IMG/VR virus record: IMGVR_UViG_640753025_000003
Length of the DNA: 16,140 bases
From: a virus
Lineage: Duplodnaviria; Heunggongvirae; Uroviricota; Caudoviricetes
Strand: one strand, 5' to 3'
Shown here: one piece after another, positions 1,285 through 7,256 of the stretch
Layout: each line of letters begins with the position of its first letter
Position numbering within the stretch: position 1 is the first letter of the stretch
The notes under the pieces: model-generated
Databases searched by the model: none
The model's input: the letters and a program-made list of their open reading frames with translations, nothing else
Told to the model about the DNA's origin: nothing
Program-made: the position numbers and the translations under genes

Positions 1285-2067
1285 AATTCACAGGTGTTTT
1301 TTCCCATCCTGTGGTTTCCTTGGCGTTTTCTAGGTTTTTTCAGATAGTTGCATTTTTTTAAAAGCATCCTAAGTTCGATCTCAGTGTCTATCTGGGGCCT
1401 ATTTCTGTTCCATATATGCCCCAAAAAACTCCCCAACAGATAAGTAGTTTTTTCATGGATTTACGCGTAAAATCAATAACGGCTGGAAATCATTCAATAC
1501 TCGCACTATCGAAAAATTTACCAGCCAACCGCAGCACGTTCTTGCATAAGGTGTGTCTGCGGTTTTTCAACTATTCAGATACATCACTCCCATCACATTC
1601 ATTCCTCCACATCAAAGGCATATAGGCTATATCACCTTGATATTTTTCTTCTTCAGATAAAAACTGTTATCTATGTATACTTTTAAACCCAATCCGTGTA
1701 GAGTCTCTGCATAAGATAGTTTGCAGTTGCCACTTCAGATTGCGCCATAAACCGCCTGATTTTTGCCGCCACCTGTTAGCATTCCTGTATACCTGAAACG
1801 ACAATGTTTATCTACGAACTTTAAGAACACCCAAGATAAAATTGTCAACTATATCATATATAACACATTACTAATTCGAGGCTATATGAACAGCATACTG
1901 ATAATCACTTCTCTCCTTATCATATTCAGCATTTTTAGTCATGCCCTAATAAAATTAGGGATTGGCATATCCAATAACCCAGACAAAACCGATGTATAAG
2001 TCAACATATCCTGAATCAGACATACAATATCGCAATGAAAATCAATAATATTTTAAGGAATATCTTC

Positions 2068-2301
2068 ATGAAATCAAAAGACACCCTAAAGTGGTTCCCT
2101 GCGCAGCTTCCTGAAGTAAGAATTATCCTAGGGGATGCTGTAGTGGAAGTAGCAAAACAGGGAAGACCTATCAATACCAGAACATTGCTTGATTACATTG
2201 AAGGAAACATAAAGAAAAAATCATGGCTGGATAACAAAGAATTATTACAAACAGCGATATCAGTTCTTAAAGACAACCAAAATTTAAATGGTAAAATGTA
2301 A
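2068..2301 (+). CDS. ydfK: Small prophage protein of the YdfK/YnaE family (reported as cold-shock induced)
   Basis: 77-codon ORF from the ATG at 2068, with AAGGAA 7 nt upstream. The translation MKSKDTLKWFPAQLPEV... matches my recollection of YdfK/YnaE. A long AT-rich leader lies upstream. Confidence 0.75.
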   Translation: MKSKDTLKWFPAQLPEVRIILGDAVVEVAKQGRPINTRTLLDYIEGNIKKKSWLDNKELLQTAISVLKDNQNLNGKM

Positions 2302-2617
2302 TATAATAAACTTACTTTTTTATCATTTTTCCACTTTAACAACATTTTGCTCCACTTTTCCACGACCAAACAACTTGAAATCTGGTTAAAATAACACGCA
2401 ACACTATTCTTCTTCCTTGAGTCCGCCCGGAACTCGAAAAACAAACCGAGTTAAAGCCATTTTTCACAAAATCGATTTTGGGTCTCACCAAAGTTACGGG
2501 GTTGCATACGCATTCGTTTATTTTCGAACGTGTACATACAAATATGCACAAAAATAATCAAAATTATTTTCTGAGATGCATTATGATATGAACACCAATT
2601 TCGTATAGAGTCTCACT

Positions 2618-3208
2618 ATGTCTCGAATTTTTGCTTACTGTCGGATATCAACGCTGGATCAGACCACCGAAAATCAACGCCGGGAAATCGAAAGTGCAGG
2701 TTTTAAAATCAAACCTCAGCAAATAATCGAAGAACACATTAGCGGCTCAGCAGCAACCAGTGAGCGTCCTGGTTTTAACCGGTTGCTTGCTCGCCTGAAA
2801 TGTGGTGATCAATTGATTGTGACAAAACTGGATCGCCTTGGTTGTAATGCAATGGATATCAGGAAAACAGTGGAACAACTGACCGAAACAGGTATCAGAG
2901 TGCATTGCTTAGCATTGGGGGGCATTGACCTGACCAGTCCAACAGGAAAAATGATGATGCACGTAATTTCAGCAGTCGCTGAATTTGAACGAGACCTTTT
3001 ACTTGAACGCACTCATTCCGGGATAGTAAGAGCCCGCGGCGCAGGGAAACGTTTTGGTCGACCACCTGTGTTAAATGAAGAACAGAAACAGGTGGTATTC
3101 GAACGAATTAAGTCAGGTGTAAGTATAAGTGCCATTGCCCGGGAATTCAAAACCTCGCGGCAAACCATTTTAAGAGCCAAAGCAAAACTTCAGACACCTG
3201 ACATATAA
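2618..3208 (+). CDS. pinQ: Serine recombinase / DNA invertase (PinQ/PinR-like)
   Basis: 196 aa. N-terminal YCRISTLDQ motif with the catalytic Ser, resolvase/invertase catalytic domain, C-terminal HTH ([19 protein letters not shown]). Convergent with the tail fibre gene. Confidence 0.9.
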
Positions 3209-3305
3209 AAAATAATCTCGGTGTGAGATGCTTTACGTCTTCCAAGCCCCCTTCCTTGCCGTAAATGGAAAGATACATCTAATTATAGAATTTATATGTT
3301 TTACC

Positions 3306-3479
3306 CTACGGCAGTGCTGGCCATTCAATATCCTGTGCAGTTGACGTATCAACACGGTTCAGCAACACCCGATACTTTTTCCAGGCTTCCAGCAACAAGG
3401 TTTCTTCCTCCGTTGCGATTTCCAGCTCAACAACAGTCTGAACGTACCGGGAACAGCCTCCTTCAGAGCTTGAAGGATA
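3306..3479 (-). pseudogene. Orphaned 3' end of a tail fibre assembly (tfa) gene, in frame with and directly after the stf stop codon
   Basis: Minus-strand translation of 3306-3479 is [57 protein letters not shown]. The final 35 or so residues carry the conserved Tfa C-terminal signature (W..YR..L.RVD.S.A.DIEWP..P). There is no start codon or RBS; it is separated from stf only by the TGA at 3480-3482. Confidence 0.6.
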
Positions 3480-6400
3480 TCAATGTTCGCTTCCTGTTAA
3501 CTGCCGGACAAGTGCAACCAGTTCGCTTACCTGATTTTCCAGAGTGCTGATCCGGGTGTCTGCTGTTGCCAGATTTTGACGTAGCGTTGTGTTTTCCTCT
3601 TCCAGCGCGGTAACGCGATCATCTGTTTCACGGGCGAACTGAACAAGTAAGCCCGTCACGGCGGCGTAGTCAACATTAAGATAGCGCGTTTCTTCGCGTA
3701 GCTCGTTGCCGTCAACGGTCGGACCTTGCAACTCTTCACCATAATGAGTAAACGATCCCACAGCTTCTGGTATCGCCTCCATTACTTCCTGTGCAATAAC
3801 GCCAGCATAAGGCATCCCGTTTTCCCTGAGCGTGTAGGTGTATCCGTTCATTTTACGGATTGCTTTCGTCGCGTCGCTGATAACGAGAATATCGTCTTTA
3901 AGGTCGCGGTCTGATGACTGATTCAGCGTTGTGCAATTAATAGCGCCATTTACATCAAACAACTGGCCTGCTGACGTTTTTTGCGCATAAAACAGATACG
4001 CAGCAGACGTGCCAACCTCAAAAACGTTTTGTCGAGTACTGGAACCCCACACCCTGACAGAAAACGGTAGTTCTGCATTACCTGAGTTCTGTAAAACAAA
4101 ACGATTGCCAGTCCCTGATTGTTTTGTAAGGGTTAAATCAACAGTTGAGTTAACCTCATTCCTGTTGATAGTGAGCGCCTGCGCTGTAGCCCCGTTAACA
4201 GCACCTGTTTTGAGTTGAACCGTGCCGTCATTACCATTTAACAGTATCTCAGCTCCGCTAAAGAAATTTTTTAGCGACAGCATCTTACTTACGCCGGCTG
4301 ATGAACCCAACGCCCACGCGAGAGAATTACCGGTGCTATCAAACCCACGTACAAAGCAATCCATTTTGCTATAGTCTGACGTGCTTCCAAGGACATCAAT
4401 TCGCCCTCCGCCAGATTTTACCGGACTAGATGTGGTTAACGACCTGACAGTTATATCCTGATTCCATCCGGAAACAACAACCTGACTCCACGCTGTCCAG
4501 TTTCCATTAACAACAAAGCGAACGTATATACGTTTTGTGTCGCTGTTAATCAGCGTTTGCATGTTCGCATAATCTGAATCCCTAACCTTACGAGTCGACT
4601 CTACACGGAGCAAAAAGTTACCGGCTATGCCGTCAGGCTTATTGGTAATATTTGCACCACCTGCAGAGGATGGACAAATATAGTATTTAACTGCCCCGGC
4701 ATCTGACTTGATGATGGTCAGGTTGTTAAGATTAACCGTCTGGCCGTCAATGTTTTCCGGCTCGATGGCTCCTGCTATCCCGGCAATGAACGTAGCAACG
4801 GCTGAAAACGCTGTCGTACCTTTGAAAGCCAGTTGACCACCAATCGTTAATCCCTTGTCGAGTTTCGCTTGCGTGATCAATTTGCTGTTTTGTTTCTGAT
4901 CAGGACTCTCACCAAAAGCCAGATCCCCATTAGTATCAATTCCAAGATACTTTGGGTTCATGTTGTCTAACTTAAACCCAATGGACACATTTTCAGAAGA
5001 ACCAGAACGCGTTAAAACCAACGGCGTGTGCTGTACTCCATAGATGCTGAGCGTAGTTGCCGATGAGTCAGTATCGGTATTTGCAATCTCAATCGTTCTG
5101 CTTTTAATTTTATACGCTACTGTGAGATCACGGACTTCAACCCTCCCGTCGTGACGAACAACAAGATCCCCTCCTGATGTCCCCCCTGCTGTCTTTGCCC
5201 TGATGCGAACTTCGCCAAGCGAATCAGTGTTAGGACCAGCATAGATTATGCCGCGCTCTGTGTTATCGCCAGTATAAAACCGCAAAGCGGTGACTCCACT
5301 GTCTGCCCGCAGGAAGACTGACGGTGTACCTTTTTTGATTGTCAAGTCACCGGTCATTGTATCGCCGGTTTTTTTTACCTGCGCATCGTTCGTTACGTTG
5401 CCAAGTCCAACATCCGATTTCGACGGCTTGTTTGCCGAGCCGTATAGCTCATTGATGCTAAAAGTCCCGTTGTTAAGCCGGGCATCGTTGCCGGCATAGA
5501 TCTTAATCTTCGCGGTTGAGTAGTCGATATTGATCGCTGACCACGTATCGCCGCACCGCGAGAATATACCAGAACCGTGGCTATAAATGGTCGCCGTGCT
5601 TCCGGTCGGCTTATCACCGCGCCAGAAATGACCACCTTTGTCACGCAGAGCTTTTAAGATCTCTACATCGCTCATCTTGCCGTTTGTTGATATCCCGCTA
5701 CCGCCAAGACCGAAAGCGCCTGTAAGCATAGCATTAGAAAGACCCAAATCTGCTTTAGTCGGCTTGTTTAACTGGTCGTAAATCCTTACAACGGGGCTTT
5801 CAACATATCCAGAAGGCGCGGCGGTTTGCTTAACAAATCCGTCTGGAATGTATAATTCCGTGCGTGCCGTCTGCGCCAGTACCGCAACCTTTGCGCCGTT
5901 GATAAATGCACGCTGGAAGGCCCAAACCTCAATAAAGCCATCATCTTTAACCAGGCCGTAACGCATTTGCATGCTATTGATTAGCCCGGTTGGCCCTAAA
6001 CGGCGTATACTCAGGTAACGAGATACATTATCAGCAGTAAGCGAAGAAGGCAGACCGCGCGCCGAGATCTCGATAAAGTCAATGTTTCCGTAAGGGGAGC
6101 CGTAGTCACCGCCGTTAGTAACCATTAGCGTTACATGGCAATTGTTGCTTCCGGGATCGGAAAGTTTCGCGATCTTTATGTAAAAAGACTCATTACCAGT
6201 AACAACGGGCCAATCGTATTGCGTCATCGGGCTGACGAGTCCCCCGACCTTGTCGAGATATTCTTTCGCCTTGTTCTCTGACGCTTTAGCGTTGGTTTCG
6301 CTGACCTTTGCTGCTGACTCACTATTTTTCGCGTTGGTTTCTGATTTTTTGGCTGCTGTCGCGGAATTTGCCGATGCAGTTTGTGAGTCTGCTGCCGCCT

Positions 6401-7256
6401 GTGCGCTGTTATCCGCATTCATCTCAGACGTTTTTGCGGCCTTCGCGGAATTTCCTGCCGCCGTTGCCGAGGAAGCTGCACTGCCGGCGCTCGAGGCTGC
6501 GCTCGTTTCTGATGATTTTGCCGCCACTTTTGAAGCCGACGCATCCCGGGCTGAGGTGGCAGCTTCTGACGCTTTCGTGGTCGCGGTGGATGCAGAAGTG
6601 GCCGCAGATTTTTGTGATGCTGCGGCATTCGTTTCTGACGTTTTCGCTGCACCGGCACTGGTGGCTGCCGCGCTTTTTGAAGACTCTGCAGCGGCAGCAC
6701 TTTTTGATGCTTCAGTAGCCTTTGTTGATGCCGTTCCTGCGCTGGAAGACGCTGACTGAGCCGACGACGCGGCCTGTCCGGCTGACGTGCTGGCTGCGCG
6801 TGCGGAGTCCGCAGCATCAGTCGCATGGGTTGCCGCCTCACGGGCTGATGTGCGGGCATCACTGGCTGACTTCTTCGCGGCTGCCGTGTTCTGTGCCACT
6901 GCGGACGCGTTACGCGCCACCTCTTCCACCATCAGTTCAAAGCGGCGCAGTGCCTCCGGACGGACATCATCCTCCGTCATGGCACCGAGAAAATCATTCA
7001 GCGTACCCGGTTGTGAGTCTTCATACACGGTGATGGTTCCGGCATGCGATGGCGGGAAGCCTTCCACCAACAGAATAACGCTGTACTGACCGTACTCAAC
7101 GTCCATGCTGTAACGCCCGGCTTCATCCGGGTTTTCTGAGGCCACTGTGTTCACCACCACCGTGGTGCTGTTGCGCCTGGCCTTTAGCTGAATGGTGCAG
7201 TTTTGTATCGGCTTACCTGCGCCATCTTTCAGTACACCTGAAATCCGTACTGCCAT
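3480..7256 (-). CDS. stf: Side tail fibre protein (mosaic): lambda-Stf-like N-terminus, Ala/Ser/Thr-rich repeat region, distal fibre region, C-terminal intramolecular-chaperone-type domain
   Basis: 1258-aa ORF with GGGGGG-type RBS before the ATG at 7256. N-terminus MAVRISGVLKDGAGKPIQNCTIQLKARRNSTTVVVNTV closely matches the lambda Stf N-terminus as recalled. Low-complexity A/S/T repeats (SETNA-type) at about aa 125-320. C-terminal 144 aa begin with SDRDLKDDI and contain GVIAQEV, resembling the Peptidase_S74-type auto-processing chaperone domain, then a coiled-coil tail. Confidence 0.9.
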   Translation of the reverse strand: MAVRISGVLKDGAGKPIQNCTIQLKARRNSTTVVVNTVASENPDEAGRYSMDVEYGQYSVILLVEGFPPSHAGTITVYEDSQPGTLNDFLGAMTEDDVRPEALRRFELMVEEVARNASAVAQNTAAAKKSASDARTSAREAATHATDAADSARAASTSAGQAASSAQSASSSAGTASTKATEASKSAAAAESSKSAAATSAGAAKTSETNAAASQKSAATSASTATTKASEAATSARDASASKVAAKSSETSAASSAGSAASSATAAGNSAKAAKTSEMNADNSAQAAADSQTASANSATAAKKSETNAKNSESAAKVSETNAKASENKAKEYLDKVGGLVSPMTQYDWPVVTGNESFYIKIAKLSDPGSNNCHVTLMVTNGGDYGSPYGNIDFIEISARGLPSSLTADNVSRYLSIRRLGPTGLINSMQMRYGLVKDDGFIEVWAFQRAFINGAKVAVLAQTARTELYIPDGFVKQTAAPSGYVESPVVRIYDQLNKPTKADLGLSNAMLTGAFGLGGSGISTNGKMSDVEILKALRDKGGHFWRGDKPTGSTATIYSHGSGIFSRCGDTWSAINIDYSTAKIKIYAGNDARLNNGTFSINELYGSANKPSKSDVGLGNVTNDAQVKKTGDTMTGDLTIKKGTPSVFLRADSGVTALRFYTGDNTERGIIYAGPNTDSLGEVRIRAKTAGGTSGGDLVVRHDGRVEVRDLTVAYKIKSRTIEIANTDTDSSATTLSIYGVQHTPLVLTRSGSSENVSIGFKLDNMNPKYLGIDTNGDLAFGESPDQKQNSKLITQAKLDKGLTIGGQLAFKGTTAFSAVATFIAGIAGAIEPENIDGQTVNLNNLTIIKSDAGAVKYYICPSSAGGANITNKPDGIAGNFLLRVESTRKVRDSDYANMQTLINSDTKRIYVRFVVNGNWTAWSQVVVSGWNQDITVRSLTTSSPVKSGGGRIDVLGSTSDYSKMDCFVRGFDSTGNSLAWALGSSAGVSKMLSLKNFFSGAEILLNGNDGTVQLKTGAVNGATAQALTINRNEVNSTVDLTLTKQSGTGNRFVLQNSGNAELPFSVRVWGSSTRQNVFEVGTSAAYLFYAQKTSAGQLFDVNGAINCTTLNQSSDRDLKDDILVISDATKAIRKMNGYTYTLRENGMPYAGVIAQEVMEAIPEAVGSFTHYGEELQGPTVDGNELREETRYLNVDYAAVTGLLVQFARETDDRVTALEEENTTLRQNLATADTRISTLENQVSELVALVRQLTGSEH

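Follow-up and report, generated by a model that had tools for sequence, protein, structure and literature searches.

The Hin, Gin, Cin and Pin recombinases are DNA invertases that show high mutual similarity, including in the DNA-binding domain, and members of the family are reported to complement each other. Two inverted 26-bp crossover sites bound the segment that they invert, with one site lying just 5′ of the invertase gene. In Mu, P1 and e14, the segment carries alternative fibre tips and tfa genes. A recombinational enhancer bound by Fis usually resides within the 5′ end of the gene, although Fis-binding sequences are too degenerate to be recognised from sequence. Here, we analyze a gene that shares several features with this group. 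It lies in IMG/VR virus record IMGVR_UViG_640753025_000003, a 16,140-nucleotide stretch of Caudoviricetes DNA (the window). Like PinE (e14), Gin (Mu), Cin (P1) and Hin, its product is a phage-borne small serine recombinase, with a resolvase domain and a C-terminal helix–turn–helix (HTH), encoded beside tail-fibre genes.

The window is 100% identical to Escherichia coli HS, at the ydfJ locus, over the 3-kb stretch tested (1300–4300). The open reading frame (ORF) at 2618–3208 (+ strand, 196 aa) is pinQ, a known E. coli prophage gene, which here belongs to a defective Qin-type prophage at ydfJ. In itself, pinQ is an ordinary gene, familiar from the textbook prophages of K-12. We find that PinQ is homologous to the resolvases (TnpR) of Tn3-family transposons, that relics of a resolution site (res) and of a terminal inverted repeat flank the gene, that crossover sites of the invertase type are absent from the window, and that an arginine equivalent to R71 of Tn3 resolvase is replaced by cysteine (Cys76). 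Below, genes retaining this arginine are called Arg-type, and those sharing the cysteine, Cys-type. These features point to pinQ as the remains of a transposon resolvase gene. In the literature searched, we found no description of PinQ or its Rac counterpart PinR as a Tn3 resolvase relic, nor of the missing arginine.

PinQ and the fibre invertases

The first-pass annotation of this DNA described an intact, Pin-like invertase that had been kept while its invertible segment collapsed. The claim that the recombinase is full length holds: the ORF is uninterrupted, the product contains Resolvase (PF00239, 3.6e-36) and HTH_7 (PF02796, 3.8e-11) domains, and the nucleophile Ser11 is retained (codon 2648–2650). 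An NCBIfam search gave sub-threshold matches only (Mpi, XisF). The label 'Pin-like', however, is misleading. Overall, PinQ is just 36–39% identical to PinE and Gin, and 18–23% identical in the DNA-binding domain. Between PinQ and PinE, identity amounts to 45% (catalytic domain) and 23% (DNA-binding domain), compared to 83% and 66% for PinE and Gin. PinQ is not a Gin/Hin/Pin-type invertase.

The collapse proposed by the annotation would make pinQ a Gin/Cin/Pin-type fibre invertase, orphaned by loss of the adjacent segment. The gene does adjoin a fibre gene and a tfa stub, the family is labelled 'DNA invertase' in PHROGs and in some annotations, and the score of PinQ against Gin (109 bits) slightly exceeds that against γδ resolvase (82 bits). 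On the other hand, the orientation is wrong. In e14, a pix site lies ∼55 bp upstream of the pinE start and faces the P segment, whereas it is the 3′ end of pinQ, not the 5′ end, that faces the fibre genes. The annotation had seen no convincing crossover sites by eye, and computational searches of the window agree. A pattern for 26-bp gix/hix/pix sites, which in a positive control recovered both e14 pix sites with at most one mismatch, gave only unpaired, chance-level matches with three mismatches in the window, inside ydfJ and J. The e14 crossover 16-mer had no match in the window at up to three mismatches. Inverted repeats around pinQ are short, with 70–92% matches, which is the chance level, and none brackets a plausible segment. 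Hence, the window contains no pair of inverted 26-bp sites with one copy 5′ of the recombinase gene.

Nor are there alternative fibre tips. The window holds one fibre gene and one tfa stub. In phage Turner, in the Qin and Rac prophages of K-12 and in strain D72, the same pin gene sits beside one complete stf–tfa pair; even these relatives with a complete tfa carry no second set of tips. PinQ thus differs from PinE, Gin, Cin and Hin in orientation, crossover sites and fibre tips. Together with the low identity to true invertases and the Tn3-family relics that bracket the gene (described below), these observations contradict the collapsed-segment explanation, which we consider extremely improbable.

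The tfa remnant is better accounted for in another way. As the annotation had estimated (about 270 bp), the gap between pinQ and the fibre gene is short, namely 271 bp (3209–3479). It contains a stub of tfa at 3306–3431 (− strand), a tail-fibre-assembly pseudogene in RefSeq, which lacks a start codon and corresponds to the last 45 aa of K-12 TfaQ (84% identity). K-12 Qin and Rac, unlike HS, have a full tfaQ or tfaR. The adjoining side tail fibre gene (3480–7256, − strand; 1258 aa) encodes an N-terminal prophage-fibre domain and, in place of the Tfa-dependent tip of StfQ and StfR, a C-terminal Peptidase_S74 chaperone with a terminal coiled coil. Because this fibre has its own S74 intramolecular chaperone, it has no need for Tfa. 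Similar stubs occur in phage Tritos and in a prophage of strain CFT073. Since the truncation of tfa accompanies an S74 fibre, and since Tritos and CFT073 carry like stubs, the evidence points to a swap of fibre modules, with recombination inside the conserved 3′ end of tfa, not to a collapsed G-type segment. The stub beside the fibre gene marks the recombination junction.

Tn3-family relics and the missing arginine

The closest relatives of PinQ (77–84% identity) are TnpR proteins of intact Tn3-family transposons, in which a divergent tnpA, a three-subsite res and tnpR lie between terminal inverted repeats. The nearest is TnpR P0014 (83–84% identity) of an element on E. coli plasmid p2RM9088 (locus L004). 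Next is a Shewanella TnpR (locus L016; 77%), whose gene is divergent from that of a 1033-aa DDE_Tnp_Tn3 transposase. All of these proteins have the same domain architecture and almost the same recognition helix in the HTH (RQTILR). In the DNA-binding domain, PinQ is 82% identical to P0014. The resolvase catalytic domain, HTH_7 and close homology to resolvases of intact transposons place PinQ among the Tn3-family TnpR proteins.

The p2RM9088 element is a 3.8-kb unit (1822–5638 of L004), in which inverted repeats of 53 nt, with 96% complementarity and starting with GGGGTCCGCTTGGAAAACGGAAAATATCCCACGCTAAG, enclose tnpA, res and tnpR. A full-length DDE_Tnp_Tn3 transposase is encoded upstream of tnpR, and RefSeq annotates this neighbour as 'Tn3 family transposase'; the PLSDB gene table omits it. 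The element occurs at 99.9–100% identity on at least 12 of the E. coli plasmids listed, and matches spanning at least 80% of its length were obtained in 65 records. The pentamers flanking it differ, and no target-site duplication is evident. Truncated 5′ ends of tnpA also lie upstream of the resolvase gene of relatives at three other loci (L018, L034 and L035).

Upstream of the Arg-type genes is a conserved three-part site, seen in eight elements from several genera. Subsite I has the consensus GWCCGAAA-N8-TTTCGKAC and lies near −114; subsite II has the consensus GTMCGAAA-N14-TTTCGKAY near −74; and a third pair of half-sites adjoins the start codon. This arrangement is that of a Tn3-type res, and the half-site resembles site I of Tn3. 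In Erwinia oleae (L020, 1268–2652), two divergent resolvase genes share a single intergenic region with extra half-sites of the family at −190, −159 and −137, an arrangement suggestive of a back-to-back pair of res sites.

The window aligns with the eight Arg-type relatives across all three subsites (2506–2606; no strand is assigned to these features). Subsite I, the presumptive former crossover site, is at 2506–2529 (ATACGCAT-N8-TTTCGAAC) and has four dyad mismatches, compared to zero or one in intact elements. Subsite II, at 2546–2575 (GCACAAAA-N14-TTTCTGAG), also has four, compared to none in 8/8 Arg-type elements. The CG cores of the half-sites are gone from both subsites, and in subsite II from both halves. 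Subsite III, beside the start codon at 2586–2606 (ATATGAAC-N5-TTTCGTAT), is largely retained, with one mismatch; it lies inside the block shared with the p2RM9088 transposon (2538–3247, 82% identity). The Arg-type relatives themselves supplied the dyad consensus, which makes their few mismatches a partly circular finding; the real signal of res is its conservation across several genera. Of the columns that are invariant in the eight relatives, the window departs from 12 of 53 within res and from 14 of 248 within the coding sequence (Fisher P = 4e-4). The CFT073 res is intermediate, with three mismatches in subsite I and three in subsite II. A scan of the whole window found no family-type res dyad with three or fewer mismatches, and the 7 kb of e14 that were scanned hold none of the family type.

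A second relic lies directly after the pinQ stop codon, at 3216–3250 (− strand). It reads GGGG-(3-bp deletion)-GCTTGGAAGACGTAAAGCATCTCACACCGAG and aligns with both 38-bp ends of the p2RM9088 element; ∼27 of 38 positions match. We interpret it as a decayed right-hand terminal inverted repeat, and homology to the plasmid element ends within it, at 3247. In phages without pinQ, homology begins at the tfa stop codon, so these genomes do not define the point of insertion. The window is homologous to the Tn3-family elements in its upstream three-subsite res, its promoter region and a 38-bp-type repeat after the stop codon. It differs from the p2RM9088 and Shewanella elements in lacking tnpA and the left end (a tblastn search of the window detected no trace of tnpA), in the degraded state of the repeat and of res subsites I and II, and in having cysteine in place of arginine. 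Moreover, pinQ resides in the accessory block of a lambdoid prophage, not in a transposon. From sequence comparison, pinQ very probably originated as part of a Tn3-family transposon.

To locate catalytic residues, we aligned PinQ with the solved structures of Gin and γδ resolvase (PDB), and also with PinE and K-12 PinQ. The latter alignment also included Gin and γδ sequences, and the PDB alignments give the mapping independently and without ambiguity. Residues Y6, R8, S10, R45, D67, R68, E118 and R125 of γδ resolvase correspond to Y7, R9, S11, R50, D72, R73, E124 and R131 of PinQ, all retained, as are R125 and E130 of PinQ. D36 corresponds to E39, which is glutamate throughout the family. R71 of γδ and Tn3 resolvases corresponds to Cys76, encoded by TGT at 2843–2845 (+ strand), where relatives have CGT or CGA; a single C-to-T change from CGT suffices. 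Consequently, PinQ lacks one residue of the Tn3-resolvase catalytic set (Y6, R8, S10, D36, R68, R71). The annotation's word 'intact' therefore applies to the ORF, the domains and Ser11 and fails at this position.

Among the 120 closest homologues, 112 have the motif DRLGR[ND]; DRLGCN is found in five, all of them near-identical E. coli sequences. Every relative from another genus has kept the arginine. The substitution is old, because a 91%-identical variant in strain D72 has Cys76 too. In Tn3 resolvase, R71A and R71K make recombination undetectable and slow cleavage by ∼1000-fold (PMC2794168).

How selection has acted on the Cys-type gene can be judged from dN/dS. Between the two Cys lineages (PinQ and the D72 variant) it is 0.38 (bootstrap 0.21–0.68), a value from a single sequence pair, compared to 0.16–0.19 between these lineages and the Arg-type plasmid gene. 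PinQ alleles that are 99% identical differ at too few sites to be informative. Given the difference between these ratios, constraint on Cys-type PinQ is relaxed, albeit not abolished. It is fairly likely that PinQ has lost catalysis, and catalytic death, which the first-pass annotation had named as grounds for giving up its proposal, is plausible in view of the Arg-to-Cys change. We infer that PinQ is catalytically crippled and without a local substrate, and that it may still bind DNA.

The prophage block and its distribution

RefSeq annotation of E. coli HS places ydfJ′ at 1–1284 (− strand), ynfT at 1886–1999 and ydfK at 2068–2301 (no strand given for the latter two), followed by pinQ, the tfa stub and the fibre gene; beyond these come lom and a truncated J gene. 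The segment from ynfT to the tfa stub is part of a conserved mosaic accessory block (1285–3429, no strand assigned) at the end of the prophage nearest to att. Phage Tritos has this block at 98.6% identity, placed between attP/int and its fibre genes. The ynfT–ydfK–pinQ block is likewise present in K-12 Qin and Rac. HS shares with K-12 PinQ (Qin) and PinR (Rac) the same gene at 98–99% identity, the ynfT/ynaM–ydfK/ynaE block, Cys76 and the decayed res. Because the block recurs in Tritos, and because the same pin lies beside a single stf–tfa pair in relatives, this is the normal arrangement for the phage group. More broadly, of 5426 complete E. coli genomes searched, 2868 contain the pinQ relic (2480–3260), in most cases with ≥99% identity, and 3584 matched places were counted in such genomes; pinQ is also carried by several plaque-forming phages.

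The prophage itself is defective. In RefSeq, an N-terminal fragment of the terminase large subunit (10627–11010) abuts a J gene without its N-terminus (7988–10633). The J remnant comprises the C-terminal 881 aa and is fused directly to the terminase fragment; from this junction, the head and tail-shaft genes have all been deleted. Each HS assembly contains a second place that matches window 1300–4300, so a second pin or fibre copy in HS is possible.

Several variants of the block or gene were encountered. In CFT073 (L039), a ynfT–ydfK–pin block with a less decayed res lies in a prophage at another attachment site, ssrA. The Cys-type variant of strain D72 (L038), at ydfJ, has many extra substitutions. 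Metagenome-assembled contigs labelled Alistipes, Draconibacterium and Caldithrix (L008, L012 and L013) contain a pinQ that is 98–99% identical to that of E. coli, most likely due to E. coli contamination of these bins. Shigella flexneri SFBU0723 and E. coli ECGI0523 (L026 and L027) each have a second copy of pin with many frameshifts and stops; these copies are either real pseudogenes or assembly errors. Finally, P0003, a protein 93% identical to PinQ, is an apparent mosaic, with an N-terminal half of the plasmid Arg type and a C-terminal half of the PinQ type. It comes from contigs of ∼1 kb and may reflect either real recombination between a TnpR gene and pinQ or chimeric assembly. PADLOC returned no defence-family match for PinQ, YdfK or YnfT, and a scan for promoters and terminators gave nothing informative.

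Proposed history of pinQ and its published activity

Taken together, pinQ is probably the tnpR gene of a Tn3-family transposon that inserted immediately 3′ of tfa, in a phage ancestral to the Rac/Qin/mEp460-type lambdoid group, and has since decayed. In its intact relatives, TnpR would bind the three-subsite res between the divergent tnpA and tnpR and resolve cointegrates, its serine mediating strand exchange at subsite I; it would probably also repress both promoters. The lineage found in E. coli prophages no longer has tnpA or the left end, subsites I and II have lost their CG cores, the right repeat is degraded, and the R71 equivalent is cysteine. On this account, PinQ would perform no recombination next to itself and would be a very weak catalyst at best. 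The gene would owe its survival to being carried along in a highly successful mosaic block. Its product may still bind DNA, one candidate site being the retained subsite III beside the pinQ promoter. PinQ would have no mechanistic link to the neighbouring fibre genes.

A number of points weigh against this interpretation, besides the partial circularity of the dyad counts. Thousands of genomes, and plaque-forming phages as well, carry an uninterrupted ORF with ≥99% identity, and dN/dS of the Cys lineage stays below 1. We know of no Arg-to-Cys mutant in the family, and R71 mutants of Tn3 resolvase were described as 'not inert' (PMC2794168). A further challenge comes from a peer-reviewed study by Kirigo et al. 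(NAR 2025; PMC12529663). According to that article, K-12 PinQ acts in trans as an active invertase that flips the 1.8-kb P segment of e14 at pix, which leads to production of StfE2 and blocks T2 adsorption. PinQ overproduction is reported to raise P-segment inversion from ∼30% to 88%, and deletion of pinQ to lower inversion, with T2 survival down 400-fold. The effect reportedly requires stfP, stfE and e14, and T2 is reported to induce the pinQ/pinR transcripts 14-fold.

Another result in the same article is hard to reconcile with PinQ or PinR as the catalyst: the pinE deletion mutant is reported to be locked in the non-inverted state. The Introduction, Results and Discussion mention no catalytic-site mutant of PinQ, and T2 selection could enrich the inverted state without any catalysis by PinQ. 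On our reading, the locked pinE mutant fits a scheme in which PinE does the chemistry and either selection or an indirect effect of PinQ shifts the ratio. In addition, PinQ lacks the R71-equivalent arginine, its DNA-binding domain has little in common with that of PinE, and the e14 region examined holds no dyads of the PinQ family. We therefore regard direct inversion of the P segment by PinQ as doubtful.

As to the window, the question is moot, because e14 is absent from HS, where icd is followed directly by iraM. Consistent with this, appending pinE and pix to the query gave no extra match in three HS assemblies, compared to one added match in strain 2017-03-3CC. The first-pass annotation had also suggested a distant target, or some other function, for the recombinase. 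This is in line with the claim made for K-12, but the e14 target is not there in HS.

A different view is that PinQ is an exapted, non-catalytic pseudo-recombinase, kept by selection for DNA binding, through which it would regulate its own block, host genes or another recombinase. Retention of subsite III and the HTH is in line with such a role, as are the upper bound of 0.68 on the Cys-lineage dN/dS and the high prevalence of the relic. A preprint reports a repressor-like role of PinR at antioxidant genes (10.1101/2022.03.29.486199), and the deletion phenotypes in PMC12529663 could be indirect. However, PinQ is not known to have a binding target, and family-type dyads are missing from the window and the e14 region examined. 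Prevalence could be explained by hitch-hiking in a mobile block, and the dN/dS estimate rests on one sequence pair. Exaptation of this kind is a possibility, though on the whole an unlikely one.

More specifically, PinQ and PinR might be domesticated pseudo-recombinases that, having lost the catalytic arginine and their own res, are kept by lambdoid prophages as DNA-binding factors. We hold this more speculative scenario to be rather unlikely. They would modulate either the action of other recombinases, as in a bias of the PinE-driven orientation of the P segment, or host transcription. If so, the anti-T2 and PinR phenotypes would be explained without strand exchange by PinQ.

Decay of a transposon resolvase gene, the interpretation that we favour, removes the apparent puzzle of an invertase without a substrate, in that no invertible fibre segment was ever present here. 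The missing R71 equivalent and the transposon-type DNA-binding domain also bear directly on the 2025 claim that PinQ is a dominant trans-acting invertase and a new kind of anti-phage system. If PinQ is catalytically impaired, the published phenotypes need another mechanism. Lastly, the case serves as a warning that phage-borne small serine recombinases encoded near fibre genes are not all 'DNA invertases'.

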